Shown here: positions 7,472-61,873 of the stretch, piece after piece
How positions within the stretch are numbered: the first letter of the stretch is position 1
How the letters are laid out: each line of letters starts with the position of its first letter
DNA from: Acidaminococcales bacterium
Lineage (GTDB): Bacteria > Bacillota > Negativicutes > Acidaminococcales > JAISLQ01
Assembly: GCA_031551525.1 (NCBI GenBank)
Contig: JAVBNN010000003.1
Location: forward strand, 8,029 to 72,028
Direction of reading: 5' to 3'
Length of the DNA stretch: 64,000 nt
Notes under the pieces: model-generated
What the model was told of the DNA's origin: nothing
What the model saw: the letters and a program-made list of their open reading frames with translations, nothing else
Database searches by the model: none
Position numbers and translations under genes: made by a program

Positions 7472-9373
7472 TTAGAAAAATTTGTACCGGTAGCCAATCA
7501 TAAAGTTAAAGCCCAGTTGATAGAAAGCCGAAGTAGTAGAAGTATTGCTGGTAATGCCTCGTTTATTGAGAAGGTTGTCCAGGTCGCAGTATATTTCATG
7601 CCGGGCGCCAGGCCGGTAAGTCATGCGCGCGCCGGTCAAAAATAGCGGGGCTGGATGCTCAGTAGCGTTGGCGTCGGCTATCGTCCTGTCACCCAGGTAG
7701 TTCCCGTACAAACTGGCCGACCATTTGCCTTGTTCGTATTCGAGACTAGCATTGAACTGATATCGCCCGTATTGCTCTTGCCAGGCTCCCTGACTGTTAC
7801 TAGTGCGGTAGCGTGGATTTGAATATACTGCCCCCAGTTTTATGCCCAGACTGCCAGACAATTTCGTTCCGTAGGATAGCTCCAGGCCGGTATTCTTGCG
7901 GTCTTCGTTTGTATAATAAAGGTCGCCCGGCCGCCCCGGTATATGGTTGGCCGCTATGTAATCTTTTATATCCATATTGAAAACAGACACGCGCCAGGAA
8001 TGAATACCTTTGTCATGTTTCAGACCTAGTTCATAAAGGTTGCCGCTTTCCGGGCGAAGTCCGCTGTTCCCCTGTGTAGAGCCAACGCCATAAGTCTGCG
8101 CCAGTGTGGGCATCACAAAAGTCCGCGCTGCGCTGGCGTAAAAACTGGTGTTTTCCTCCGCTTTATACAGAATATGCAGTTGTGGTGAAAAGCCATCATA
8201 ATCACGCCCACCCGCTGTCCAGTCTTCCCGTGCACCAACAGTCAACGACCACTTCCCGGCAAAAGACGTCTCCCACTGAGCGAACAGGGCATAATTCATG
8301 CGGTCATATGCAGCCAGCGGCATATTTTTCAAGGCCCGACTGGCTGTATATTCCTGTTGCACGTCAAAACCCACAGTCAGGTTGCCTTTTTTTACACGCG
8401 GACTGTGTTGCAGGCGAAGGCCGCTCAACCTGTCTTTATTGGTGCTTTGCAGACCCGGCAAACTCTCCGTTTGGTTATATATAAAGCGGTAACTGTTGTA
8501 GAGGCTCGCCGTGAGGCCGCCATTTTCATAGTGCGCATTCAGCATATTGTGATAGGCATTGTAGTTGTTGCGCGCAGTAATAAGGCCGCTTCTTTTATTC
8601 TCGGTAGAACGCGCATAGCGGTTGCGAGCGGATATCTGGCTGACCGACAGGTGTTCGTTAAAACGGTAACGCCAGCTATACATGTCTTTGTCGCTTTTTT
8701 CGAGATTGTAATACACGCTGGCCGGGCCAATAAAACTTTCCCCATACCTGTTTACCTGGCCAATGTGGCTGTTTTGGTAGGAAAAGCCAAGTTTTCCCTC
8801 CTGCCAGCCCATGCCCGCAGTGTATTGGCCGTAATTGCCACCACTTAGAAAAACTTCTTTTTCGTGGGCTTTCTTGCTGCTGATATTGATGACGCCACCG
8901 GCCGTGTCCCCGCCATATAAAACGGAACCGGCCCCTTTGACCACTTCTACCCTGCCTATGGTGCCCAGCGGTATGTTTTCCAGGCTGACAGAGCCGCCCA
9001 GATTGAGTGGCACACCATCAAGTAAAATCAAAGTACCTCTGTCTTGTCCACGCAATACCAGCTTGCTGGCCATCACGTCTATCGACTGTCCGGCCGGCCC
9101 TTGCGAATGATAAACTATGCCTTCCGAGTATTTTAATGCTTCTACCAGTGTAGTAGCTCCGGTACCTGCCAAATCTCCGGCAGTATATGTGTTTGTTTTT
9201 GCCGGTACATCAAGTTCTTTTTTGCCGGGGCGGGTAGCGGTCACCACCACCGGCTCCAGTTCGAATTCGTTTGTCGGGTTTTCCGCCCATACTGCTCCGC
9301 TTGGCAGTAAGGCCAAAGATATGCCTAAAATTATACTGTTTCTTTTAAGTCTGCTAAAACTGTTTTTTCCCAT
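7472..9373 (-). CDS. TonB-dependent outer-membrane receptor
   Basis: Start moved to the internal ATG at 9373: MGKNSFSRLKRNSIILGISLALLPSGAVWA is a signal peptide, preceded by GGAGGG. Plug region ELEPVVVTATR...VEALKYSEGI...LVLRGQ...ILLDGVPLN...IGRVEVVKGAGSVLYG. Long beta-barrel ending in the aromatic C-terminus YRYKFF. Confidence 0.85.
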   Translation of the reverse strand: MGKNSFSRLKRNSIILGISLALLPSGAVWAENPTNEFELEPVVVTATRPGKKELDVPAKTNTYTAGDLAGTGATTLVEALKYSEGIVYHSQGPAGQSIDVMASKLVLRGQDRGTLILLDGVPLNLGGSVSLENIPLGTIGRVEVVKGAGSVLYGGDTAGGVINISSKKAHEKEVFLSGGNYGQYTAGMGWQEGKLGFSYQNSHIGQVNRYGESFIGPASVYYNLEKSDKDMYSWRYRFNEHLSVSQISARNRYARSTENKRSGLITARNNYNAYHNMLNAHYENGGLTASLYNSYRFIYNQTESLPGLQSTNKDRLSGLRLQHSPRVKKGNLTVGFDVQQEYTASRALKNMPLAAYDRMNYALFAQWETSFAGKWSLTVGAREDWTAGGRDYDGFSPQLHILYKAEENTSFYASAARTFVMPTLAQTYGVGSTQGNSGLRPESGNLYELGLKHDKGIHSWRVSVFNMDIKDYIAANHIPGRPGDLYYTNEDRKNTGLELSYGTKLSGSLGIKLGAVYSNPRYRTSNSQGAWQEQYGRYQFNASLEYEQGKWSASLYGNYLGDRTIADANATEHPAPLFLTGARMTYRPGARHEIYCDLDNLLNKRGITSNTSTTSAFYQLGFNFMIGYRYKFF

Positions 9374-9443
9374 CTTGCCGCGCGCCCTCCACAATGAACA
9401 TACAATAATTATACTATATAAAATAATATGCGGGCGGTGGTAT

Positions 9444-9475
9444 TTTATATGCCAGCCATCTTTATGGCATATAAA
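9444..9475. repeat. 11-bp inverted repeat TTTATATGCCA-N10-TGGCATATAAA upstream of the TonB-dependent receptor
   Basis: Perfect arms at 9444-9454 and 9465-9475. It lies about 70 nt upstream of the receptor start, between the receptor and the preceding terminator. Confidence 0.5.
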
Positions 9476-9478
9476 GTG

Positions 9479-9507
9479 AAGAAGCAGCCGCATGGCGGCT
9501 GCTTCTT
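9479..9507 (-). terminator. intrinsic terminator hairpin after the flhB-C-like gene
   Basis: AAGAAGCAGCCGC / GCGGCUGCUUCUU 13-bp GC-rich stem with a short loop, 8 nt after the stop at 9515. The U-tract on the minus strand is weak (CACUUUAU). Confidence 0.55.
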
Positions 9508-9514
9508 GGTTTAC

Positions 9515-9835
9515 TTATGTACCCGCGCCAAGGCGCTTGCTCATCTCCATGATATTGTTGGTGCGGTAGATATATGACAATACTTCCGCTACCGCCTGAT
9601 AAAGCTCCGGCGGTATCTCGCTGTCGAGTTCAAGCGCCATCAGCATCTGGGTCAGGGCGCGGTTCTGGTATACGGGCACAGCATTACTGGCCGCCGTTTT
9701 CAGGATGTTTTCCGCTATAGTTCCCTTGCCTTTGGCGATTATCTTCGGGGCGCCGTCGTTGCCGACGTCGTATTTAAGAGCTATCGCCTGGGTTATTTCT
9801 TTTTCTTTCTCATCTGCCATGCCGCCGCTCCTCAC
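9515..9835 (-). CDS. ylqH: stand-alone FlhB C-terminal (post-cleavage FlhB_CC) domain protein, YlqH-like
   Basis: 106 aa. AIALKYDVGNDGAPKIIAKGKGTIAENIL...VPVYQNRALTQML...IPPELYQAVAEVLSYIY aligns by eye with the FlhB segment following NPTH (YAVALQYD...APKVLAKGAG...LYAAVAEVLAWVY). It has no TM region and no NPTH motif. Confidence 0.8.
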   Translation of the reverse strand: MRSGGMADEKEKEITQAIALKYDVGNDGAPKIIAKGKGTIAENILKTAASNAVPVYQNRALTQMLMALELDSEIPPELYQAVAEVLSYIYRTNNIMEMSKRLGAGT

Positions 9836-11910
9836 ACTACCATTATGCTGTTAAGTTTCATATTGCTGGCCACGAGCGCATCCTGAATATTGGGTACGAA
9901 CCGCGAAAACTCTTTCATGCCTTCGGGGTTTTCAAATACTACCCGGACATCCAGAAGATTTTCCTGGTACAGGTGGAATATTGCTGTCACAGCGCCGGTA
10001 AATTCAGGCGCGGCGTTTATACGCAGCCAGGTTTCCGGGTTTTTCGCGCCATTTGCGCCGCCCGAGCCTTCCTTGTCATGGTAGATGTTTACATAGACCG
10101 GCTGGTTTTTTTCCTGTCCGTCCGGCGCCAGATAAAACATGAAGGAACTTTGGATATGCTGGGCATTGCGCTCGCTTGGCATCTGCGTGGTGCGGGCCAT
10201 GCCGGCGGCGATGTCACGCAGGGAGTGGGCCCAGCTGTCTACCTGTTGTTTGGAGTATTGGAGGCTCTCACTGTTTTTTAAGAGTTTATTAAATGTTTCA
10301 AGGTCGGACCCTTCGCTGTCCAGTAAAGAGCCTTCTTTACCGGTCAGTTTGTGCAAGGCTTTTTCCAGCAGGGAAAATTCTTCAGGTTTTTTGAAGGTAT
10401 CTTTAATTACATTGGCGATCAAAGAGTGCAGCATGGCTTTTTCACTGCCCGAGAGGTCTTCCGGGCGGCTGCTCAGCGTTTGCAGCGCCCTGGCCACTTC
10501 CGGTCTTTGCGCGCTTTCTTTTTGCAGTTCGAGGCCCGCTCTTTGCATGGTATCCATAAAGCGGGCTATGTCTTTAGTGGTAGGCTGCGGCAGTTCCTTG
10601 CCGGAAGGCGGCATATGTGCGCGGGCCATATTCAAGAGGCTGTTATCCTGCTTGGGCTGGGTGGCCGGTTCGGCAGGGGCTTCTTTGCCTCCAGCCGTCT
10701 GCTGCGCGGGAGCGCCGTCTTTCGGCGCAGCGGTTTTGTCGGCAGAGTTTTTCAGTATATCTATAAGTTCGGTCAGCGAGTTTTTGCCTACTACTTCGGC
10801 CAATCCTTTGACAACTGTGGCATTGCGGAAAAATTCCAGATTGGGATTTTTCCCCTCCAGGTTTTTTGTTTCACCCTTGGCCGTCTGCTCTTTTCCGTCC
10901 TGTGACAAAACCGGCTGGCGGGCGTTATTGCTATTGATCGTAGTGCCATGTTCGCGCGGCGCCGTTTGCGCCTGTTGAGGCGGAGCGGACTCGCCGGCTG
11001 AGGGTTTTGGTTGCTGCTCTCCCGGAGGCGCTTTGGGTGCATGGTCTGCCGTAATGGTTTTGGGTGCTTGTTCCGCCGGAAGCGGTTTGGCCGTTTCCCC
11101 TTGCTGAGGGGCGCTTTCCTTGGCAGCAGGCTGTCCGGCGGTCTGGCTGGAAGCAGTTTTGCCTTCGCCGGGTAAGGGCTCGCCTTTGGCTGTGGTCTGA
11201 GCCTGCTGCGGCGCGGCGGCATCTTTCGGGGCTTGCGTAGCGGCCTCTTTCGGCATTTGTGCGCTAGCGTCCTTATCCGGCTGCGCCTGTTTGCCCTCCG
11301 GCAGTGGTTCTTCCGTTATTTCCTTGCCGAGGATCTGCAGTTCTTTTACGATAGCTGCTCCATCTTTGGCGGCGATGCTTTCCAGCAAGCTCTTTATAAG
11401 TTGGGCGTCCAGTTTTTCCGCCACCGCTTCTTTGGTGACTGGCATGGACGGCTGCTCCGGCATACGGAACTTGGGCAGAGTTTCTTTGGTGCCAGCCTCT
11501 TCCGGCTGGGCTGCGTCGTTGAGAAATTCGGCGACACTGGCTAAGGTATCCGCCAGTTTATTGAGATTTACGGCGACGTCTTTCTGGCCCTGCAACAAGT
11601 TGCTAAGACCGTCGCCCAAATCCATCATGGCGGTCTTGTTGGTAAACAGCTGCCTTATGGCGTCTTTCAGGCCCTGCGGCATGCTATCAAGGTTTTTTTG
11701 TGCCGTTCCGAGTTTATCCGACAACTCTTTTAAAAGTGAGTTTATCGCTTCTTGTCCGGCCATTTTAACGTCGGACGGGGTGCTGCTGGCAGTAGCGGCT
11801 TTCGCCTCCACCCCTTCGGACGAGGTTTGCGCTGACTGCTTGATGGTCTCACCATTCTGGATGTTGCTGACCAGATTGTTAAGTTGTTGTACCACGCCTT
11901 GGATATTCAA
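9832..11910 (-). CDS. FliK-like (flagellar hook-length control C-terminal domain) protein with long P/A/Q/K-rich disordered centre; YlqG position
   Basis: 692 aa. Central low-complexity tract PKEAATQAPKDAAAPQQAQTTAKGEPLP...APPQQAQTAP. The C-terminus WLRINAAPEFTGAVTAIFHLYQENLLDVRVVFENPEGMKEFSRFVPNIQDALVASNMKLNSIMV has the Flg_hook/FliK-C pattern. 4-nt overlap with the flhB-C-like gene. Confidence 0.55.
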   Translation of the reverse strand: MNIQGVVQQLNNLVSNIQNGETIKQSAQTSSEGVEAKAATASSTPSDVKMAGQEAINSLLKELSDKLGTAQKNLDSMPQGLKDAIRQLFTNKTAMMDLGDGLSNLLQGQKDVAVNLNKLADTLASVAEFLNDAAQPEEAGTKETLPKFRMPEQPSMPVTKEAVAEKLDAQLIKSLLESIAAKDGAAIVKELQILGKEITEEPLPEGKQAQPDKDASAQMPKEAATQAPKDAAAPQQAQTTAKGEPLPGEGKTASSQTAGQPAAKESAPQQGETAKPLPAEQAPKTITADHAPKAPPGEQQPKPSAGESAPPQQAQTAPREHGTTINSNNARQPVLSQDGKEQTAKGETKNLEGKNPNLEFFRNATVVKGLAEVVGKNSLTELIDILKNSADKTAAPKDGAPAQQTAGGKEAPAEPATQPKQDNSLLNMARAHMPPSGKELPQPTTKDIARFMDTMQRAGLELQKESAQRPEVARALQTLSSRPEDLSGSEKAMLHSLIANVIKDTFKKPEEFSLLEKALHKLTGKEGSLLDSEGSDLETFNKLLKNSESLQYSKQQVDSWAHSLRDIAAGMARTTQMPSERNAQHIQSSFMFYLAPDGQEKNQPVYVNIYHDKEGSGGANGAKNPETWLRINAAPEFTGAVTAIFHLYQENLLDVRVVFENPEGMKEFSRFVPNIQDALVASNMKLNSIMVV

Positions 11911-40753: not shown

Positions 40754-42412
40754 ATGAAATATTCAGTAAAAATTTTTGCCGCCATTTTAATACTAGCTTT
40801 ACTATTATACAATAATTTTTTTCTAAATTGTGTATTTTTCTATACGAAAGAAAATAAACCTGTACCGGTAACCTTGTCTAAAGGAAAACCGCTGGGCAGT
40901 GTCTTGTTTTTGCCTCTCGACAGTCGCCCGCCCTGTCTTTTCTTTGTCACCGCACTGGGTAGTATGAGCGGGTGGAATATACTATCTCCGCCACCAGCGC
41001 TGCTCGATAACTACTACCAGCCGGCCGATTATTACGCGCTCCGGCAGTGGGCCTTTACGCGAGCGCCTTCGGCTGACGCCGCCATAGTATCGCTTGACAT
41101 GTTCACCTATGGCGGCCTTATCGCGTCACGGCGCGGACAAATAAACGCCCTCGAAATGCAAAGCGCGCTCAAGGGGATCGAGTTTTTAGCGGGGCGGCAG
41201 AAAGAGCTTTATGCTTTTGCCATCATTCCCCGTCTTTTGATCGCCGAAGACGACGCTACCAAGCTTTGGCAATACCATATGATGGTCTATTCGACGAAAA
41301 AAGATATGGAAGATACTTTTGGCAATCCGGCCGACTTTGCCCGCATGCAGGCAATGCTTTCCCGCCTGCCGCCCGAATTGATAGAACGATTTAACGCTCT
41401 ATATGAAAAGAACGATGCTTTCAACCATAAGTTGGCCCAAACCGCAACGCGTGGCATTTTCCGCCAACTGTCCGTCGGCCAGGACGATGGGCAGCCTTTT
41501 GGCAGACCCAATGCCAATATGCACAAGCTGGCGGAATACTGCCGTGGTCTCAAAAATACGCATTTGACACAAGGCGCCGACGAAATAGCCATGTTGCAGC
41601 TAGCCTGCCTGTCTAGCCAAAAAACCGGCTTTTCGCCCAAAATAAAAGTAGTCTACTCTCACCCCAGCGTGCCTGACCTCGTAATGCACTTCATGCCGAT
41701 AACGGTAGAGGAGACTGTACGGGAAAAGATAGCTCTGTTAAACGGCCAAAAAACAGAAAAGACTGAAGATGCCGACTTTGTCCTCTTTGTGCATTGCGGC
41801 AGTAGTGAAACAGGCTTCCTGCTGGGAGAAATAGCGGAAAAAGCCATTGCCCTGGCCGGGCAAAAACCACTGGCGCTCATCGATTTGAGCGCGAATTTCA
41901 ATCGGCACGAGACTATACTAGGCAACCTACTCGATAAGAGTTTCCCCCTCGCCTCGCTAGCCGCCTATGCCGGCTGGAACACCAGCAGCAACTCTATAGG
42001 TACAGCGCTCTCGCAAGCCGCGTTATTCATCAATCGAAAAAACTCCTTGGATAAACAATATTGGCCGCAACTGTACCGGGAAAATTTCGAATTTACTATT
42101 GCCCGCGTTCTTGACGACTGGCTGTATCAAAAAAACGTACAGGACTCGGTAAACGATTACCTGCGCTGGAAGGGCATAGACCCCTACCGACTGGGCGTTG
42201 AAAAAAATTACGCCCTCGAAAAGATACGTTGGCGCATGTACCTGCCGCAGCGCAAGATGTTTTACGGCAATATCGGCAAATATCCTTTTTACCAGGACAG
42301 CAGCGGTGACTACTATGTGACCGCCCTTGATGCAGAGGTGACACTGCCCTGGGAGCGCACTTTTGAAATAGCGCTCAGTGTAAAAACACAAGTCGGAAGA
42401 GTAGAGAACTAA
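40754..42412 (+). CDS. hypothetical membrane-anchored protein, possibly DUF4127 family
   Basis: 552 aa. N-terminal TM (IFAAILILALLLYNNFFL), then LFLPLDSRPPC, resembling the remembered DUF4127 N-terminal LPLDxRP motif. No catalytic motif recognised. Confidence 0.4.
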   Translation: MKYSVKIFAAILILALLLYNNFFLNCVFFYTKENKPVPVTLSKGKPLGSVLFLPLDSRPPCLFFVTALGSMSGWNILSPPPALLDNYYQPADYYALRQWAFTRAPSADAAIVSLDMFTYGGLIASRRGQINALEMQSALKGIEFLAGRQKELYAFAIIPRLLIAEDDATKLWQYHMMVYSTKKDMEDTFGNPADFARMQAMLSRLPPELIERFNALYEKNDAFNHKLAQTATRGIFRQLSVGQDDGQPFGRPNANMHKLAEYCRGLKNTHLTQGADEIAMLQLACLSSQKTGFSPKIKVVYSHPSVPDLVMHFMPITVEETVREKIALLNGQKTEKTEDADFVLFVHCGSSETGFLLGEIAEKAIALAGQKPLALIDLSANFNRHETILGNLLDKSFPLASLAAYAGWNTSSNSIGTALSQAALFINRKNSLDKQYWPQLYRENFEFTIARVLDDWLYQKNVQDSVNDYLRWKGIDPYRLGVEKNYALEKIRWRMYLPQRKMFYGNIGKYPFYQDSSGDYYVTALDAEVTLPWERTFEIALSVKTQVGRVEN

Positions 42413-53322: not shown

Positions 53323-54117
53323 TCAGTCAACCAATGAAGCCTGGTACATTATTATAGCGGCCGCTATAGCGACATTTAGTGATTCAGCCCGGCCCGCCAT
53401 GTGTATACTTCTCTCTGCATCCGCTGTTTTGTGGAAAAAGGCTGAAGGGCCATGTGCCTCACTGCCCATAACCACAGCCGTCCGGCCAAAAAAATCCGAC
53501 CGGGAAAAATTTTTCCCGGACATATTACTTACATAGAGGCAAAAACCTCTTTCTTTCAACCATACGGCTATTTCCCGTTCGCCACAGCCTAAAACGACCG
53601 GCAAATGAAACAGTGAACCCATTGTGGAACGCAGAGTTTTCGGCGAATACAGGTCGGCGCAGCCTTCGCTGAGCAGCACGGCTCCCACGCCTAAAGCGTC
53701 TGCCGTGCGTATGATCGTGCCAAGGTTGCCCGGGTCGGCTACGCGGTCAAGCACTAAAAATAACGTTTTTTCCGGCACATTTATACTGTCTAGTTGAAAA
53801 TCAACTTTACGCGCCACCGCCACTATCGGTTGCGGGGTGTGAGCGTCTGATATTTTGCAAATGACAGCATCATTGGCAGACCAAAAGGCTATACCTTGAT
53901 CTTGCGCCAGCCTCTGAAAAAATAAAAACTCTTCTTCGCCGAGCGCCTCACGTGACGCAAATATTTTGACAAGCGGCCAGTTGCTAACCGAAGCTTCTTT
54001 GATCATTTTGGCGCCTTCCAGCAAAAATGAAGCGCTGCGTTCGCGAAATTTTTTTTCTTTTAATTCCGCCGCCGCTTTTACTGCCGGGTTTTGCAGGCTG
54101 GTGAGCAGTTCATTCAT
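53323..54117 (-). CDS. TrmH/SpoU family RNA 2'-O-methyltransferase (YsgA-like)
   Basis: 264 aa. N-terminal L30e-like substrate-binding part, SPOUT motifs LDRVADPGNLGTIIRTA, VMGSEAHG, SLNVAIAAAI. Position upstream of pheS, as for Bacillus ysgA. Confidence 0.85.
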   Translation of the reverse strand: MNELLTSLQNPAVKAAAELKEKKFRERSASFLLEGAKMIKEASVSNWPLVKIFASREALGEEEFLFFQRLAQDQGIAFWSANDAVICKISDAHTPQPIVAVARKVDFQLDSINVPEKTLFLVLDRVADPGNLGTIIRTADALGVGAVLLSEGCADLYSPKTLRSTMGSLFHLPVVLGCGEREIAVWLKERGFCLYVSNMSGKNFSRSDFFGRTAVVMGSEAHGPSAFFHKTADAERSIHMAGRAESLNVAIAAAIIMYQASLVD

Positions 54118-54773
54118 GTTGCCTTCTCCAGTTCCCTTATGCCGCTACTTTTGCCCGCCACTACCAGTACGTCATCTTTTTCGAATACCCTGGTAGGCGG
54201 AGGTGTGACCATGATATCCATCTTGTTTCTTATGGCCACTACTGTCAGTTCATAATTTTCCCGGATGCCGCTGTCCATAAGTTTTTTACCTATCATGTTG
54301 TCCGGCACCGATAGCTCTACTATGCCAAAATTGGGCGACAGTTCGATAAAATCCAGTATATTGCTCGATACCAGGCTGTGCGCCATCCTTTTTCCCATAT
54401 CATGTTCAGGATACACTACCTTGTCCGCGCCGATCTTCTCAAGCATCCTGCCGTGGCGCATATCGAGCGCTTTGGCTACTATGTGTTTGACGCCCAGTTC
54501 TTTCAGGATAAGTACGGTCAAAAGATTGGCCTGGAGATCATCTCTGCCGATGGCTACTACTACTACATCAAAGTTTCTGATGCCGATGGCCTTGAGATTT
54601 TCCTCATCGGTAGTATCAGCCGCCACCACGTGGGTAAGCTCATGGCTGTGCGTCTGTATAAGTTCTTCGTCTATATCTACGCCCAGTACTTCCTGCCCCA
54701 AAGCACAAAGAGTATTGGCCAGGCTTAAACCAAACCGGCCCAGTCCCAGTACAGCATATTGTTTTTTGGCCAT
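54114..54773 (-). CDS. trkA: Trk/Ktr potassium uptake system, RCK (NAD-binding) subunit
   Basis: 219 aa. AVLGLGRFGLSLA Rossmann GxGxxG, RCK_C domain. 4-nt overlap with the downstream gene. Confidence 0.9.
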   Translation of the reverse strand: MAKKQYAVLGLGRFGLSLANTLCALGQEVLGVDIDEELIQTHSHELTHVVAADTTDEENLKAIGIRNFDVVVVAIGRDDLQANLLTVLILKELGVKHIVAKALDMRHGRMLEKIGADKVVYPEHDMGKRMAHSLVSSNILDFIELSPNFGIVELSVPDNMIGKKLMDSGIRENYELTVVAIRNKMDIMVTPPPTRVFEKDDVLVVAGKSSGIRELEKAT

Positions 54774-56147: not shown

Positions 56148-56179
56148 AAAAAAATAGAGCCGCCCTGAGACAGCTCTAT
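56148..56179 (-). terminator. weak hairpin + U-tract after the beta-barrel gene
   Basis: On the minus strand AUAGAGC-N12-GCUCUAU followed by U7. Its 5' arm overlaps an extended -10 element TGCTATAAT (56186-56178) that could serve trkH. Confidence 0.4.
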
Positions 56180-56230
56180 TATAGCATTTTATTGTTTTCT
56201 TGCGCATATTTTTTATCTAAAATACTATTG

Positions 56231-57727
56231 TCAAATATAGAAAAAGCAGGTCCCGTAGAAATTATAGCCGTGGTAACCGCTGCTGCCGGCCTGGTTGTCT
56301 TTCATGTAAAACTGTTCGGCTCGCAGAGTCAGCTTAGTTTTAGTGTTTATGCGGTGTTCGTAATCCAGTCCGACAGTATATTTAGTGCGTCCGTTACTTC
56401 TAAGGTCGGTCAATGGATCATAAACACTGCCAAATTTACGCATGAAATCAAAACCTATTCCCACGGTTCCCTTGGCGGATACATCGTTTTTCCACCGTGT
56501 CCCCGCATAATGGTTACGACCGGTGGCGACTTTAGGCAGAGTAGGATCAAAGGAATCGTATGGTTGCTCATTGTTGTACCAATAGTAGAACATGAGGTTT
56601 TGCCTGTTCGCCAGCTTTCTGTTGTACACAAGGTGTACTTCGAACTGGTCGCCCTGCCGGTACTCGGACGCCGCTTCGATGGTTTTGCTGTAAGTGCTGT
56701 ATTGGACTTCGCCTACAAACTGCCAGTTTTCTTTTATTTTTTTAAAGCGCCCCAGAAATGTCCAATTATTTGCCGGGTCTATCCAGCCATCCGGCCTTGA
56801 GCTGTCATAGTCATAACTGCCGGTGCGCGTGTAGCTGGCCCCTAGCGCCCAGGTTTCGCCCGGTCTGGCTTCCCAATTGAACAATATCGCCGGTATATAG
56901 TTCCATCCTTCACCAAAGCGGCTCATTTCTACCAGGTCGTCGGTCATTATCGCGTTGTTGCCGTATAAATTGGATTTACCGGTGGGCAGGTTGACATTAA
57001 GGCTGTAAATCGTCTGGTATTTTCCGTGCTTGCTGTTGTATGCAACACCGAGGTTGCTGTCCGTCCAGCCGGTATACTTTCCGTTATCAATGCCTGTTTT
57101 GTTGTTGGAATACATATAGGCCGTCTTGAAGCTGTATTCCATATGGCCGTCGATAAATGTATATACAGCCGGCATGTACAGCTGGTAACCACGGTCTCCT
57201 TCATCGCTGTGCCAGCGATAATATTTAATGTCGGCGCCAGCGCCTTGCCAGCTTCTGTCAGAGAGGCTGGCTTTATCCATGCTCTCAAGAGATTTACCTG
57301 TCTTGTCCCGTGTTTTTTCCGCTCCCGCCAGATCACTTTCTGCGTCCAGCAGGTATTTTTCCAGCAACGCCACTTGTTCGCGCGCTTTATCGCGGCTGCT
57401 TATAAAATCATCCAGATTGGCCTGTCCACTGGCAGTCACCATGGTCAAGTCCTGGTCGGTCTTTTCGTAAAACGCTCTGGCGTCGGCCAGCCTTTTTTGT
57501 GTTAGGGCAATGAATTCTTTGACATCGGAAACTTTTTTCTCGTCGTTCGCGAGATACTGTTGCCAGAGTTCTTTGGCTTTCGCCTGCTCTACCGCCAGCT
57601 TCGCGTCGTAAATAGCCCCGTCGGCGATCTGCCGCGCGGTCGGAGGAACATTGATAGCCGTAGCCTCAACCATCTGCGGAATCAAAACAAGCAACATGGA
57701 TATAAGTAGATACCGTTTGTCCAACAC
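56231..57727 (-). CDS. outer-membrane beta-barrel protein with N-terminal periplasmic coiled-coil extension (last gene of the glycan-synthase operon)
   Basis: 498 aa with a GTG start. Signal peptide MLDKRYLLISMLLVLIPQMVEA. About 130 aa of helical, charged sequence follow (AKLAVEQAKAKELWQQYLANDEKK...LLEKYLLDAESDLAGAEKTRDK). Then about 340 aa with alternating aromatic/hydrophilic beta-strand patterns (YQLYMPAVYTF, YSFKTAYMYS, LGVAYNS, TWALGASYTRT, FEVHLVYNRK, TVGIGFDFMRKF, YTVGLDYEHRI, LTLRAEQFYM), ending in the aromatic C-terminus FFYI. Confidence 0.65.
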   Translation of the reverse strand: MLDKRYLLISMLLVLIPQMVEATAINVPPTARQIADGAIYDAKLAVEQAKAKELWQQYLANDEKKVSDVKEFIALTQKRLADARAFYEKTDQDLTMVTASGQANLDDFISSRDKAREQVALLEKYLLDAESDLAGAEKTRDKTGKSLESMDKASLSDRSWQGAGADIKYYRWHSDEGDRGYQLYMPAVYTFIDGHMEYSFKTAYMYSNNKTGIDNGKYTGWTDSNLGVAYNSKHGKYQTIYSLNVNLPTGKSNLYGNNAIMTDDLVEMSRFGEGWNYIPAILFNWEARPGETWALGASYTRTGSYDYDSSRPDGWIDPANNWTFLGRFKKIKENWQFVGEVQYSTYSKTIEAASEYRQGDQFEVHLVYNRKLANRQNLMFYYWYNNEQPYDSFDPTLPKVATGRNHYAGTRWKNDVSAKGTVGIGFDFMRKFGSVYDPLTDLRSNGRTKYTVGLDYEHRINTKTKLTLRAEQFYMKDNQAGSSGYHGYNFYGTCFFYI

Positions 57728-57784
57728 TTTTCAACACGCCCTTTTCTGCTCTATATATAAACAAATATAATATGTTAATGTTTT

Positions 57785-58612
57785 TTAGTCTGTTTTCACG
57801 TTTAATATTTTTACCAGGAAGGTGTGGAATAAAGAATGGGCGAGGAAATTATCTCCGGCAGCGGTAAATTGCCCGAGCGGCATATTCACGTACAACACCT
57901 GCCCCTTCCCATAGGTGGTCAATACTATAGCCGGCTGCTTTTCCGTTTCGCCTTCTTGTATAACATAGGCGTAAATGGCCGACAATGGTATCTCTTTTAA
58001 CACCTCGTTGCGGTGTACAGCCATATCCTGAGGTTTATCGTTGCCAGCGCTGAAGGTTTTGCCACCTATCAGCTTTTCCGGAGGGAAATCAAATACCGCC
58101 TGGTGTTTGGGAGATAAAAATTCTATTTGCCCATAGGTAAGGGCTTTTTCGCCTTCTTTTTTATGTGTTATGTTATTTATACCTATGATATCGGCAAATA
58201 TCCCTTCCGTGAGAAACGTACCTTGGGGATGCTTAGTCCCTGCGTCGTGTATTATCGCAATATTTCCGCCGTTATCAAGGTAAGAGCGTGTCCATTCACC
58301 TAAATGATCCGGCGCCTTTTGCAGTATCAGGTCGGGCAGTATGATGACAGGTACCCTGGTGGCAATTGCCGCCGGGTCTATATTGAGCAGCTTATACACT
58401 TCCACTGCGTCATTGGCAAATTTTTCTTTTCCCAAAACGCTCTGGTATGCTTTGAGCACTTCCGGCGCCCGGCGCAGTTCGTCGGCGTTATAAACTATTA
58501 GTATTTCACGGGTGCTTTTGCCCGCCAGTTTTTGTATATCGTACAGTTTGGGCATAGCAAAGGCCACTAGCGCGGCTATCAGCGCCAACGCTATAATAAG
58601 GTTCCTTCTCAT
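57785..58612 (-). CDS. signal-anchored/exported protein of unknown family
   Basis: 275 aa. N-terminal hydrophobic segment MRRNLIIALALIAALVAFA and a strong GGAAGGAGGGG RBS. The alpha/beta-looking body (ILIVYNADE...VPVIILPD...GGNIAIIHDAG...VLYVNMPLG) has no motif I can assign. Confidence 0.35.
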   Translation of the reverse strand: MRRNLIIALALIAALVAFAMPKLYDIQKLAGKSTREILIVYNADELRRAPEVLKAYQSVLGKEKFANDAVEVYKLLNIDPAAIATRVPVIILPDLILQKAPDHLGEWTRSYLDNGGNIAIIHDAGTKHPQGTFLTEGIFADIIGINNITHKKEGEKALTYGQIEFLSPKHQAVFDFPPEKLIGGKTFSAGNDKPQDMAVHRNEVLKEIPLSAIYAYVIQEGETEKQPAIVLTTYGKGQVLYVNMPLGQFTAAGDNFLAHSLFHTFLVKILNVKTD

Positions 58613-58653
58613 GCTTTTAACCCCTCCTTCCCCGGTTCATTGCAACGCAAGCT

Positions 58654-59670
58654 CTAGGCCGTACGCCCATCGCCTTCTGTGGTTATATACCCATATATCC
58701 TTACGCCCTGGTTAAGCGTTATATTTTTCATGGCTACCACCGAGCGTATTTTATCCGGTTCTCCGACTACCACGTTCTCGCCTATGACGACAGCCCCCTG
58801 GGAAAAAATCGTACCCCTGACAAAACAGTGGTCTCCTATATACACATCGCCCTCTACAAACATACTCCCGAGGATAGTGACGCGCTCTTCGAGCGTGACT
58901 GTGCCGTGGGATTTTATATTGCCGGCAACCAAGCTGTTACTGCCCACAAAAAGCTGGTCTTTGCCGATGAGGCTGCCTTTTACGTAGCTGCCGGTCGGGA
59001 TGCCGTTTATATTGCGCCCTACTACTTTTTCTACCACTACGTCTTCGACCTTGGCCGGGGCGGCCAGTTCAGCAAAGCTGGTGGTGATAGGAAAACCGTA
59101 TAACCGTTTGAAGTGGCAGTCTTTGCCTAACGAAAGGCGTTTGAGGCAAGTGGCGCTCACGGCTATGTTGCAGCCGTCTTCTATGGTTATTTCGCCATTG
59201 GCGTCCAGCCAGCGGGAAATGCGCGTATCTTTGCCCACATATATACTGTTGTCGGCAAGTACCGCGCGCAATGCATTTTTTTCACCAATGTCGGCGTTGC
59301 CTTTGGCATACACTTCTTTGTCGCCTTCTACCCCGGCTCCTGAAAAAAAGTTGTTTTTTATGTAGTAAATGTTTTCCAGCGTTTGCCCGCTGGGGATTTT
59401 GACATTATCACAAACTTCTACGGTTTCGTCCTTTGACAGGTGCATGGTATAAAGTCCGTCCGGCAATTTTCCGTCGTTCGTCCTGTAGAATGCGTCATTG
59501 AAGAGATCACGCAGAGACAGCGCGAAGTAGCGCGGGTCTTTCTTGTATTCCATATTGATATATAGCGGCAAAGGGTCTTCCCCCAGCCTAAGCTCGCGGA
59601 ATCCCAGGAAAAATACCCAGGCAAAAGATGCTATTAATAATATCGCGCATAAAAGTACCAGCATGGTCAA
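58654..59670 (-). CDS. membrane-anchored beta-helix repeat protein (bactofilin/polymer-forming cytoskeletal-like)
   Basis: 338 aa. N-terminal TM MTMLVLLCAILLIASFAWVFFLGF. The C-terminal half contains short repeats with the hydrophobic-x-hydrophobic-G rhythm typical of bactofilin/left-handed beta-helices (LFVGSNSLVAGNIKSHGTVTLEERVTILGSMFVEGDVYIGDHCFVRGTIFSQGAVVIGENVVVGE). ATGA overlap with the GT2 stop. Confidence 0.45.
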   Translation of the reverse strand: MTMLVLLCAILLIASFAWVFFLGFRELRLGEDPLPLYINMEYKKDPRYFALSLRDLFNDAFYRTNDGKLPDGLYTMHLSKDETVEVCDNVKIPSGQTLENIYYIKNNFFSGAGVEGDKEVYAKGNADIGEKNALRAVLADNSIYVGKDTRISRWLDANGEITIEDGCNIAVSATCLKRLSLGKDCHFKRLYGFPITTSFAELAAPAKVEDVVVEKVVGRNINGIPTGSYVKGSLIGKDQLFVGSNSLVAGNIKSHGTVTLEERVTILGSMFVEGDVYIGDHCFVRGTIFSQGAVVIGENVVVGEPDKIRSVVAMKNITLNQGVRIYGYITTEGDGRTA

Positions 59671-61025
59671 AAACTTCCTTTGGCTACTTGTGGATCGTCT
59701 CCTACAAGAATAACTTCGTTGTCTTTCCTGAAACGGTCGGTTTTATGCCATTTAGCCTCGCGCGACGTGAGTTTGTCTATTATGGCGTCTATCAAACCAC
59801 GCGAAATATACCACATATAAAAGAAGAAGTTAAAGATCAAAAGCGGCAGGAGGAATATCCGCTGGCTCATACCATCGAGGAGACAACCTACGCCGATCTG
59901 GTAAAATGGGGCGAAGTTGCCGAAAGTATTGTAAACGCCCATGAAAATAAGGAAATATACTCCGGTAAACAACTGCATATCGCCCATGGCGAACAGTATT
60001 ACCGATATGATCATCGCCAGAATAAGGAAAAATGGTACTGCATAGACCAGCATCAAGAGGATGCCGTCTACTTTTTCTCTGGTTGTCAGGTAAGGGGTTT
60101 TGATGACCGGCCAAAAATACCTGAACATGACGTCATTGTGTCCGCGCGACCATCGTCTGATTTGGCGGGCCCTGACCGCCCAGGTTTCCGGTACTTCTTC
60201 ATAGCATTCCACCCGGTTGGCATATAATATTTTCCAGCCGTTTATCGACAGACGGTAGGTAAGTTCGGTGTCTTCCGCCAGTATTCTTTCATTGAAAGAG
60301 CCCAGGTTCATGACCGTTTCACGGCGAAATCCGCCGACCGTGCCGCCGTACTGCGGCATGAGCTTCATGTTGTAGCGGGCCTGCTGGTCTACCTGATAGC
60401 CGCCCGAACGTTCGAGGTCGAGCAGTTGAGTCAAAAGGTTGGTGCGGGTGTTTATAGGCACTACCCGCCCCATAACGGCTCCTACCTCGGGATCGTTGAA
60501 ACAAATGGCGATATTTTTTATGATACTTACCGGCGGAAGATAATCTGCGTCAAAAACTATTATCACCTCTCCGCTGGCTTTTTGCATGGCTTCATTGAGC
60601 GCCGCCGGTTTGCCGCGGGTGCCGCTGTACCGGTGCAGGGGTTTTATGATGTCCGGATGACGCGTGGCATAGTCGTCCAGTATGTTTTTCGTATCGTCAT
60701 CAGAGTGGTCATTGATCGGTATGACCTCGAATTTGGTCATATCATAGTCGACTTTGAGCAGTCTTTCCAAAACATTGCGGACAACTGCTTGCTCATTGTG
60801 CATGGGTACTAAAACTGTAACCGACTTGAGTTCAGAGTCCACTATGTCCTGGTAATAGATCCGTTGCTCGCCGAATAGCCTGTTAATGGTGAAAATGAAA
60901 TGCCGCACGGTATATATGACCATGAAAAAAATAGTGAAAATCAGGTAGCCTTTCATGATGCTTACCATGTTGTTCGATATGATGCTTATTATCTTGTCTG
61001 CTGATGCGCTTATTGCCATTTCCAT
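59667..61025 (-). CDS. processive family-2 glycosyltransferase (membrane-embedded beta-glycan synthase, COG1215 BcsA/PgaC/IcaA/NodC/HasA type)
   Basis: 452 aa. N-terminal TM (GYLIFTIFFMVIYTV). GT-A core with VLVPMHNE, INDHSDDDT, FDADY (DxD), AEDTELTYRL (ED) and QIRRWSRG (QxxRW). 3-4 C-terminal TM helices. Confidence 0.8.
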   Translation of the reverse strand: MEMAISASADKIISIISNNMVSIMKGYLIFTIFFMVIYTVRHFIFTINRLFGEQRIYYQDIVDSELKSVTVLVPMHNEQAVVRNVLERLLKVDYDMTKFEVIPINDHSDDDTKNILDDYATRHPDIIKPLHRYSGTRGKPAALNEAMQKASGEVIIVFDADYLPPVSIIKNIAICFNDPEVGAVMGRVVPINTRTNLLTQLLDLERSGGYQVDQQARYNMKLMPQYGGTVGGFRRETVMNLGSFNERILAEDTELTYRLSINGWKILYANRVECYEEVPETWAVRARQIRRWSRGHNDVMFRYFWPVIKTPYLTTREKVDGILLMLVYAVPFFLILAMIISVILFAMGDMQLFTGVYFLIFMGVYNTFGNFAPFYQIGVGCLLDGMSQRIFLLPLLIFNFFFYMWYISRGLIDAIIDKLTSREAKWHKTDRFRKDNEVILVGDDPQVAKGSF

Positions 61026-61792
61026 GTAGTAAACTGTCCTCTCAGATCAATGGAAAGCCTATTGAGATAAATACTGTATATGCCCACTACATAAACAAAG
61101 TCGACTAGTGGCCCCAGGCCGAAAAAGAATATCGGCATATAGATCATGGATACCTTGGAAAGAATGAACAAAAACACAACATAACGGACCAGGCCGAAAA
61201 GAATGGCATACAGGTAGGTAACGCACATAACGAGTACCTTAGAGGCAATGGTCGTCGGCAAAGGCAAGACGGCCAGGCCCATGATGAGCGGTATGAAAAA
61301 CCATATGCTGATCTCCTGCATCATGTAAAGATGCGCATAGTCAGAGAGTCTGTACGGGAACTTTTCCGGAAAATACAGAAAACAAAGCGATGCCAACAAG
61401 TAAAGGAAAAACATATATATCAAAAATATCATCAGGGGCTTTGCCCGTTTGATGAAGGGAGATACCGCGACCAAGAGCGCGGCAATGACAGTATTAACAA
61501 GGGCGTTGATGTGGCTGGGGAATACGCCCGGAAGATCGAGAAAATATATCAGTCCTATGCCCGGGATGTATTCGATATCGGTCATTTTGATAGCGCCGGA
61601 TGAAAAATACGGCGCCAATATGTCTCTTGTAATTATGCTGACATGACTGGTGATGAGGGGATAAAAAAATATGCTCAGCAAAGACAGCGGCACCGCAATA
61701 AGTATGAACTGCCACAAAAACTTGCCGAAAGAACCCGGCAGCCTGCGGTAAGCCCTATGATATAGAATTATCTCTTTGGATTCTTTTGCCAT
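61010..61792 (-). CDS. polytopic integral membrane protein of unknown function (first gene of the glycan-synthase operon)
   Basis: 260 aa with about 7 hydrophobic helices (FLWQFILIAVPLSLLSIFFYPLI; VNTVIAALLVAVSPF; LMIFLIYMFFLYLLASLCFLYF; ISIWFFIPLIMGLAVLPLP; VLVMCVTYLYAILFGLV; VVFLFILSKVSMIYMPIFFFGLGPLV). No recognisable motif. Its stop overlaps the GT2 start by 16 nt. Confidence 0.5.
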   Translation of the reverse strand: MAKESKEIILYHRAYRRLPGSFGKFLWQFILIAVPLSLLSIFFYPLITSHVSIITRDILAPYFSSGAIKMTDIEYIPGIGLIYFLDLPGVFPSHINALVNTVIAALLVAVSPFIKRAKPLMIFLIYMFFLYLLASLCFLYFPEKFPYRLSDYAHLYMMQEISIWFFIPLIMGLAVLPLPTTIASKVLVMCVTYLYAILFGLVRYVVFLFILSKVSMIYMPIFFFGLGPLVDFVYVVGIYSIYLNRLSIDLRGQFTTWKWQ

Positions 61793-61844
61793 CGTAATCT
61801 TTGCCAGCCTTCAAAAATTCATACAATAATATACATACTTTTTT

Positions 61845-61873
61845 ATTGTATAAAAACATTGCCTTTTTGTCAA
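61845..61873 (-). promoter_or_regulatory. sigma-70 promoter (TTGACA-17-TACAAT) of the five-gene glycan-synthase operon
   Basis: On the minus strand, TTGACA (61873-61868), a 17-nt spacer, then TACAAT (61850-61845), about 50 nt upstream of the start at 61792. Confidence 0.6.

Follow-up and report, generated by a model that had tools for sequence, protein, structure and literature searches.

We analysed a 64,000-nucleotide window (the whole stretch of DNA considered here, positions 8,029 to 72,028 of contig JAVBNN010000003.1, assembly GCA_031551525.1) from an Acidaminococcales bacterium and find in it a five-gene operon, referred to below, in gene order, as P1-GT2-P3-P4-P5. Its products probably form a synthase-dependent exopolysaccharide system reaching across both membranes, in which a family 2 glycosyltransferase (GT2) would make the polymer at the inner membrane and a beta-barrel protein, P5, would let it out. 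New here is the reduced, lineage-specific form of the operon with its rare coiled-coil barrel exporter; the parent system is widespread and uncharacterised. Synthase-dependent exopolysaccharide systems, among them those for cellulose, poly-beta-1,6-N-acetylglucosamine (PNAG), alginate and Pel, are central to biofilm biology, and to our knowledge the well-studied ones all cross the periplasm with a TPR-porin. A preliminary description of this DNA had read these genes as an operon for a GT2 of the synthase type and an outer-membrane barrel, in a host with two membranes, a proposal that our analysis supports.

Five coupled genes between two terminators

The ORF (open reading frame) list of the 64-kb window holds five intact, co-directional ORFs on the minus strand, from 61792 to 56231. 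They and their flanking signals are as follows.

61010-61792, minus strand: P1, 260 aa (amino acids), polytopic inner-membrane protein
59667-61025, minus strand: GT2, 452 aa, cellulose-synthase-like catalytic core
58654-59670, minus strand: P3, 338 aa, one N-terminal transmembrane (TM) helix and hexapeptide-type beta-helix stretches
57785-58612, minus strand: P4, 275 aa, signal-anchored or secreted, class-I-glutamine-amidotransferase-like fold
56231-57727, minus strand: P5, 498 aa, signal peptide, helical hairpin and beta-barrel
61845-61873, minus strand: sigma-70-type promoter TTGACA-17-TACAAT, 11/12 matches, ~50 nt (nucleotides) upstream of the P1 start codon
61872-61908, minus strand: fba terminator-like hairpin CCTTCCC...GGGAAGG with T-run, read by eye, loop of 13 nt
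56153-56180, minus strand: intrinsic terminator at the operon end, between P5 and trkH, 12-bp stem, 4-nt loop and T-run

P1 and GT2 overlap by 16 nt and GT2 and P3 by 4 nt, the latter an ATGA overlap that couples the start of P3 translationally to GT2; gaps of 41 nt (P3 to P4) and 57 nt (P4 to P5) follow. GGAGG lies upstream of P4, and GAGGA precedes the GT2 ATG by 11 nt. The promoter is the top promoter-like match across the 6.2-kb region scanned and directly abuts the fba hairpin and T-run, which insulate the operon against read-through. Because its 13-nt loop is above the limit of the terminator scanner, this hairpin was taken from the sequence directly. The preliminary description had placed all of these elements as we find them: the five genes with their overlaps and gaps, the promoter immediately after the fba terminator, and the hairpin with a U-tract before trkH. 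A second promoter-like sequence, TTGATA-16-GATAAT with an extended TG (10/12), lies at 58251-58278 on the minus strand, inside P4 and upstream of P5; it may be a chance match, since 10 sites of this kind would be expected in the region and 18 are present. An Rfam search of 55.5-64 kb found no riboswitch or leader, just two sub-threshold chance matches.

The operon had also been described, by eye, as an A+T-rich block. At 0.474, its GC content is below the 0.502 of the window, but the fba/rplT flank lies just as low (0.46-0.48), and GC at third codon positions (GC3) in the five genes, 0.50-0.58, falls inside the flanking-gene range of 0.49-0.63. We thus dropped the idea of an A+T-rich island as a hint of horizontal transfer, to which GC3 gives no support.

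Four of the genes are the core of a widespread operon

The operon was first presented as self-contained. It is neither that nor unique, and shares four of its five genes with the core of a widely conserved operon. The full form of the latter reads (UDP-GlcNAc 2-epimerase)-P1-GT2-P3-P4long-P6-YaiO-family barrel, where GlcNAc is N-acetylglucosamine, P4long a protein of ~610 aa and P6 one of ~295 aa. This full order is seen in Sporomusa malonica, a Nitrospirota metagenome-assembled genome (MAG), a contig from the Joint Genome Institute (JGI) and the metagenome loci L012, L013, L014 and L016; two further loci (L018, L020) carry reduced or rearranged versions, and a Cupriavidus megaplasmid carries a distant one. 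The P1/GT2 and GT2/P3 reading frames overlap in every related locus, by 13-19 nt and 1-4 nt respectively. The window operon has orthologues of P1, GT2, P3 and the P4 N-terminal domain in the same order and with the same overlaps, its GT2 being 64-71% identical to those of this operon. Unlike the full form, it lacks P6, the epimerase, the YaiO barrel and the CE4 deacetylase half of P4long, and it ends with the non-homologous P5. Searches of the 64-kb window with phmmer and tblastn recovered no epimerase and no remnant of P6. The expectation that all five genes would be co-conserved therefore holds for P1-GT2-P3-P4 but not for P5, which is replaced by a YaiO-family barrel in most relatives outside Negativicutes.

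The P6 profile drew weak matches, and every one was an (alpha/alpha)6-barrel protein (cellobiose 2-epimerase, 3e-3; rhamnosidase six-hairpin); a glycoside-hydrolase-like role for P6 is plausible on this resemblance. Judged by its sequence, the window operon appears to be a reduced, lineage-specific variant of the widespread operon. The deacetylase, the putative hydrolase-like P6 and the linked epimerase are kept in nearly all relatives and lost here.

A related gene cluster also occurs in Escherichia. The E. fergusonii IncI1 conjugative plasmid NZ_CP057682.1 (L029, 7080-13705) carries one under generic annotations, in the order 'polymer-forming cytoskeletal protein' (165 aa, bactofilin-like)-wecB-YaiO barrel-hypothetical protein of 242 aa (polytopic)-acyltransferase-hypothetical protein of 355 aa-GT2. 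Its GT2 is 42% identical to that of the window, and the P3 profile recognises its small beta-helix protein with 76 bits. In E. coli K-12 (L025, 380069-384616), yaiO adjoins yaiX (an acyltransferase pseudogene split by IS2), yaiP (GT2) and yaiS (putative deacetylase), a neighbourhood that hints at a silent locus for a polysaccharide, with YaiO as its barrel.

P4 is the N-terminal domain of a deacetylase protein

P4 had been called a signal-anchored protein of unknown family. The N-terminal hydrophobic segment is there (the N-terminus reads MRRNLIIALALIAALVAFA, a signal peptide or signal anchor, which places the domain in the periplasm), but P4 is not a family of its own. A word-indexed homologue search with P4 returned P4 alone, and an exhaustive HMMER search was needed to recover 111 cluster representatives, most of ~610 aa and several stand-alone at ~270-300 aa. 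In the long proteins (P4long), a P4-like N-terminal domain is followed by a divergent CE4 deacetylase in the C-terminal half, recognised by Polysacc_deac_1 at 34 bits in L002, 41 in P0235 and 30 in P0249 and just under threshold in others. P4 of the window corresponds to residues 1-270 of P4long, with 34-42% identity over the N-domain, and stops exactly at the domain boundary; tblastn found no remnant of the CE4 half across the window. What the window keeps as P4 is the N-terminal, non-catalytic part of the CE4 deacetylase protein of its relatives.

An AlphaFold2 (AF2) model of P4 was built from a 67-sequence alignment (pLDDT 95.4, pTM 0.90). Foldseek ranks highest for it the central domain shared by GH42 beta-galactosidases and GH164 mannosidases (1.5e-10, TMq 0.54), in line with weak sequence matches to Glyco_hydro_42M. 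In these enzymes the central domain is non-catalytic and serves in trimerisation. A role as an amidotransferase is ruled out, because P4 contains zero cysteines and so lacks the nucleophile of class I glutamine amidotransferases.

An alternative is that the operon, having lost the deacetylase domain, P6 and the epimerase, is a decaying remnant by which polymer is no longer made or exported and which persists only because the deletion is recent. Nearly all relatives keep both P4long and P6, of which the window has neither the genes nor remnants, and PNAG export is known to need deacetylation by PgaB. We nevertheless consider decay unlikely. All five ORFs are full length, with zero frameshifts and 35-70% identity to their relatives, and the 11/12 promoter, the translational coupling and a clean terminator are all preserved. 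Moreover, the clean end of P4 at the domain boundary has a precedent: a stand-alone 275-aa P4 is found in another lineage, at L026 (GT2-P3-P4short-P6-YaiO, plus P4long on the other strand), and other homologues of ~270-300 aa exist. The short P4 is thus a natural variant, and an operon trimmed yet working as an exopolysaccharide system is the reading we prefer.

The GT2 has the motifs of a processive synthase

The GT2 matches Glyco_tranf_2_3 in Pfam at 1e-31. As the preliminary description had noted, it has DxD, ED and QxxRW motifs flanked by TM helices: FDAD at residue 158, AEDTE at 250 and QIRRW at 288 align column for column with VFDADH, ITEDAET and QRGRW of BcsA (5ej1), and hydrophobic segments lie on the N-terminal (20-47) and C-terminal (322-340, 342-360, 390-408) sides. 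The protein thus has the D, DxD, TED and QxxRW set and the TM-flanked GT-A domain that characterise processive, cellulose-synthase-like GT2s. Orthologues at 60-71% identity occur in Sporomusa, Nitrospirota, Thermodesulfovibrionales, Acidobacteria and Proteobacteria. By sequence, the top match in the PDB is the archaeal mannosyltransferase PcManGT (6yv7, 2e-23). PcManGT, a cellulose-synthase-like GT2 of minimal build, has been linked to the synthesis of N-glycans and is not an exopolysaccharide synthase.

P5 belongs to a rare barrel family found beside exopolysaccharide genes

P5 had been described as a signal-peptide beta-barrel with a coiled-coil extension, and its AF2 model (pLDDT 86.3, pTM 0.79, from a 25-sequence alignment) bears this out: a signal peptide is followed by a helical hairpin at residues 27-151 (helices 27-100 and 105-151) and a barrel of ~16-18 strands at 159-497. 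The top two Foldseek matches are the BcsC barrel (9b8a, 6tzk) at 2e-10, and PelBC and AlgE are also listed; the likeness to BcsC is one of TM ~0.35-0.40 at 8-9% identity. P5 has no Pfam match, to YaiO (PF19413) or any other family. We rejected the idea that it is a distant YaiO relative, as hhalign of the two families gave a probability of 0.7% and aligned the last strand alone.

The P5 family comprises 25 homologues in 5.8 billion clusters, 22-43% identical, with invariant positions at Q182, D223, P248-T249-G250 and G272. Other members are 585-680 aa long and have longer Ala/Glu-rich helical regions; the window copy has the shortest stalk. It shares with the family the homologous barrel, the Ala/Glu-rich N-terminal helices and the exopolysaccharide gene neighbours. 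A genome scan with a 10-sequence subset of the 25-sequence barrel alignment found only 4 P5-family loci among 185,579 GTDB species genomes, from Acidaminococcales, Sporomusa rhizae, a Sporomusaceae MAG and a Synergistaceae-labelled MAG.

All recovered P5 contexts, which are of three kinds, adjoin exopolysaccharide genes. The closest to the window is L030, with the order P1-GT2-P3-P4long-P6-P5, where a P5 41% identical to ours occupies the YaiO slot. Other relatives of P5 end operons of the form GGDEF-(DUF2334)-GT2-BcsB-like, in L003/L008 (the Synergistaceae-labelled MAG), L004 and L006 (Sporomusa rhizae, CP156925); the GT2s of these operons belong to another subfamily, 27-29% identical to that of the window. 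P5 thus appears to be a modular outer-membrane polysaccharide exporter, the strongest evidence being that every recovered context is an exopolysaccharide locus and that these loci hold three different synthase or enzyme sets.

Two of the contexts have features of their own. In the Acidaminococcales MAG loci L002 (6923-14504) and L005 (4742-12437), which count with L030 as the operon type of the window, the order is P4long(a)-P6(a)-P5-P4long(b)-P6(b) with an epimerase after it, and the duplicated P4long-P6 copies have diverged to ~40% identity or less. In L027/L028 (176-3084), where the contig ends just upstream of the P5 homologue (41%), that homologue is followed directly by a GH114 gene and then by chemosensory and GGDEF genes. 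GH114 is the endo-alpha-1,4-polygalactosaminidase family.

Could the GT2, in the manner of PcManGT, NodC or HpnI, instead attach sugar to a lipid, form a glycolipid or make only a short oligosaccharide, with P5 a porin or uptake channel unrelated to export? The rank of PcManGT among PDB matches fits this idea, as do the four hydrophobic segments of the GT2, where BcsA has eight. The P5 barrel also resembles general and sugar-specific porins (CymA, maltoporin, chitoporin) almost as well as BcsC, and four of the 25 family members weakly match Phenol_MetA_deg, an outer-membrane family. Set against this are the full TED and QxxRW set aligned with BcsA and the company that the GT2 strictly keeps across phyla: a CE4 deacetylase of the periplasm, a protein that may be hydrolase-like, and a barrel in the outer membrane. 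That the P5 family also ends GT2-BcsB-like operons and adjoins GH114 would be hard to explain without an exported polymer. We give such a non-synthase GT2 and unrelated porin only a slim chance, and proceed with a polymer-making GT2 and an exporting P5.

P1 and P3 are conserved neighbours and probable partners of the GT2

P1 had been called polytopic and P3 TM-anchored, and hydropathy agrees on both counts, with ~6 hydrophobic segments and a basic N-terminus in P1 and one N-terminal hydrophobic segment in P3. P1 has no relative in Pfam, NCBIfam or the PDB, the last also searched with the family profile. Across 10 orthologues, 47 of its positions are invariant, including H12, R13, R16, N100, Q159 and D231, and each related locus has a P1 orthologue, at 47-53% identity, immediately before its GT2 orthologue. 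From this arrangement P1 would be a co-subunit of the synthase. Membership of P1 in the 'Lipocone' family was considered and dropped, since PMC12419801 describes no matching context.

In P3, the N-terminal TM helix is followed by a conserved juxtamembrane segment, PLxINMxY-KDPRYF, and then by two hexapeptide-type beta-helix stretches. Orthologues (29-44% identity) directly follow the GT2 in all related loci. P3 scores under the Pfam gathering thresholds for both Bactofilin (PF04519; 24.3 vs 27.9 bits) and Hexapep (20.9 vs 27), and its family profile matches LpxD, GlmU and the bactofilin 6ria at E ~2e-4 in the repeat turns only, so that P3 belongs neither to the bactofilins nor to the hexapeptide acyltransferases. 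Because its 165-aa homologue in the E. fergusonii plasmid cluster has no TM helix or signal peptide, the beta-helix of P3 is most likely cytoplasmic.

Comparison with known systems

Searched against Pfam, the five proteins show no domain of the PilZ, TPR, deacetylase, glycoside hydrolase, BcsB or Wzx/Wzy kinds, and none of the accessory proteins is placed by sequence in the Pga, Bcs, Pel, Alg or Nfr families. In a phmmer comparison with E. coli PgaA-D, NfrA, NfrB, YbcH, YaiO, YaiP and YaiS, matches arose at the level of the GT2 only (PgaC 82 bits, YaiP 38, and NfrB 22.9, over the N-terminal part only). The preliminary description was right that the defining accessory parts are absent and that the accessory proteins fall outside the known Bcs/Pga/Ica/Pel/Alg/Nfr families. 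Its step from these absences to a different architecture was not, as the relatives carry a deacetylase, a possible hydrolase and an epimerase, and the logic is familiar. The ingredients of the parent system (epimerase, synthase, deacetylase, possible hydrolase, barrel) are PNAG-like and Nfr-like, and the type of system is already familiar.

With the Pga/Ica PNAG systems, the operon shares a membrane GT2 with D, D, D, QxxRW, a membrane partner, an outer-membrane barrel and, in the relatives, a CE4 deacetylase. It differs in that the partner is the six-TM P1 plus the TM beta-helix protein P3 rather than the 2-TM PgaD; in that the relatives' deacetylase, absent from the window, has a GH42-type N-domain where PgaB has a GH153 C-domain; in that P5 has a coiled-coil hairpin where PgaA has a TPR domain; and in that no cyclic di-GMP (c-di-GMP) element was found in the operon. 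The roles of PgaB and PgaA have been described (PMC5933820, PMC9384988). That the operon is a plain divergent pga/ica operon is very improbable: PgaC_IcaA (TIGR03937) is the top NCBIfam family of the GT2 (next family 80 bits), the JGI labels its orthologues 'cellulose synthase/poly-beta-1,6-N-acetylglucosamine synthase-like' and the relatives carry a CE4 deacetylase, but the score of 138.6 bits is far under the equivalog cut-off of 422.3, nothing in the operon is similar to E. coli PgaA, PgaB or PgaD, the epimerase in most relatives points to N-acetylmannosamine (ManNAc) instead of, or besides, GlcNAc, and neither Pga nor Ica offers a counterpart of P1, P3, the P4 N-domain, P6 or the YaiO or P5 barrel.

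In E. coli, NfrB-NfrA-YbcH together with WecB/NfrC form a c-di-GMP-activated exopolysaccharide system needed for phage N4 (bioRxiv 10.1101/2021.10.01.462733). Like it, our operon pairs a GT2 synthase with an outer-membrane exporter and a periplasmic auxiliary protein; the Nfr system needs a UDP-GlcNAc 2-epimerase, and most relatives of the window operon encode one inside the operon. Unlike NfrB, the window GT2 has no C-terminal c-di-GMP-binding extension, and the window has no epimerase. Beyond the low NfrB score of the GT2, P4, P5 and P6 are without similarity to NfrA or YbcH. The Bcs cellulose system offers the BcsA motifs, the BcsC barrel as the top structural match of P5 and, in BcsZ, a protein that the relatives' periplasmic P6, of (alpha/alpha)6 type, would parallel. 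PilZ, BcsB and a TPR-barrel like that of BcsC are all missing here, and the likeness of P5 to BcsC is at the level of the barrel fold only.

Two further systems resemble parts of what we describe. The exopolysaccharide operon ydaJKLMN of B. subtilis (PMC5422440, PMC7064775, PMC13274460) depends on c-di-GMP, and the P5-ended GGDEF-DUF2334-GT2-BcsB-like operons look, by domain order alone, like a diderm ydaK-N; their GT2 subfamily is a different one from that of the window. OmpM of diderm Firmicutes (PMC10628300) is likewise an outer-membrane barrel preceded by a periplasmic extension, a likeness of architecture only: it has an SLH domain and tethers peptidoglycan, whereas P5 has no SLH domain by Pfam, and OmpM is not among the top 50 structural matches of P5. 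The Rubrivivax psc1 cluster (PMC3684757), also considered, is unrelated, being a Wzx/Wzy, PEP-CTERM-type locus.

Neither Negativicutes nor loci with a linked epimerase figure in a systematic survey of operons of the synthase-dependent type (PMC7112194). We found no publication on the window system or on the conserved operon, in searches that did not cover most subscription journals, so that the earlier label 'undescribed' stands provisionally. Nor did we find literature on an exopolysaccharide role of YaiO-type or P5-type barrels.

A model for synthesis and export

From the gene order, translational coupling, homologies, synteny and two modelled folds, we infer a mechanism that proposes processivity, a sugar, subunit contacts and roles for P1, P3 and P4. 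The GT2 would polymerise a nucleotide sugar at the inner membrane and thread the chain across it. The sugar would most likely be UDP-GlcNAc or UDP-ManNAc, giving an N-acetylhexosamine polymer, because of the PgaC-like affinity of the GT2 and the linkage to CE4 and a 2-epimerase in the relatives. Having just four hydrophobic segments, the GT2 probably needs P1, and the six-TM, translationally coupled P1 would, by analogy with PgaC-PgaD, probably complete or gate its channel. P3 probably acts as a scaffold or regulator of the synthase at the cytoplasmic face. In the periplasm, the non-catalytic P4 probably oligomerises, receiving the chain and linking the synthase to the P5 hairpin; such a platform is suggested because its domain type trimerises GH42 enzymes. 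The P5 barrel would be the exit for the polymer through the outer membrane, and its coiled-coil hairpin, reaching into the periplasm, would do the job of the TPR domains in PgaA, BcsC, PelB and AlgK. As the CE4 half and P6 have been lost from the operon, the polymer would leave fully acetylated and unmodified unless enzymes encoded elsewhere act on it.

Several points weigh against a synthase-dependent exopolysaccharide system. P1 and P3 are without informative homologues, and the topology of P3 is assigned from a weak charge bias. With PcManGT as its nearest relative by sequence in the PDB, the GT2 is only a putatively processive enzyme. For P5, general and sugar porins score just ~tenfold worse than BcsC in Foldseek. 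Finally, an operon trimmed of deacetylase, P6 and epimerase might be impaired. Weighing these points with the rest, we still hold the system more probable than its alternatives.

The wider picture is of a widespread, unstudied operon with an accessory set of its own (a partner with six TM segments, a beta-helix protein anchored in the membrane, a deacetylase whose N-domain is of GH42 type, and a barrel of the YaiO family), a related cluster of which is also carried by a conjugative Escherichia plasmid. The coiled-coil-stalk barrel appears to be the route by which Negativicutes-type diderms let polymers out across their outer membrane, and no fewer than three types of synthase make use of it. 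The trimmed five-gene form, with synthase, scaffold and porin, could serve as an experimental handle on the minimal requirements for export. More tentatively, and at somewhat less than even odds for the two parts jointly, P5 may found a new class of export channel with a coiled-coil hairpin in place of the TPR scaffold, present so far in Negativicutes-type bacteria and one Synergistaceae-labelled MAG and serving at least three synthase systems, while P1 and P3 may be obligatory subunits, overlooked until now, of a synthase for N-acetylhexosamine polymers that is widespread, from Nitrospirota to plasmids of Escherichia.

The host and the rest of the window

The host has an outer membrane, because a TonB-dependent receptor with plug and barrel (7472-9493, minus strand) is encoded in the same window; with HydF, MutS2 and acetate kinase also encoded there, it looks like an anaerobic diderm Firmicute. 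For the operon proteins, the closest relatives are those of Acidaminococcales MAGs, Sporomusa and Methylomusa. Among 15 billion proteins, not even ribosomal protein L20 finds a relative at more than 90% identity. In that same set, L20 (62900-63253), L35 (63278-63475), TrkA (54114-54773) and an RNA methyltransferase (53323-54117) each make up a 90%-identity cluster on their own, and the genome therefore comes from a very sparsely sampled lineage.

Adjoining the TonB-dependent receptor is a 692-aa ORF (9832-11910, minus strand) whose only Pfam match is of coiled-coil type; phmmer does not make it a paralogue of P5. A DUF4127 protein of 552 aa (E = 6e-102) is encoded at 40754-42412 on the plus strand, opposite to most genes of the window.

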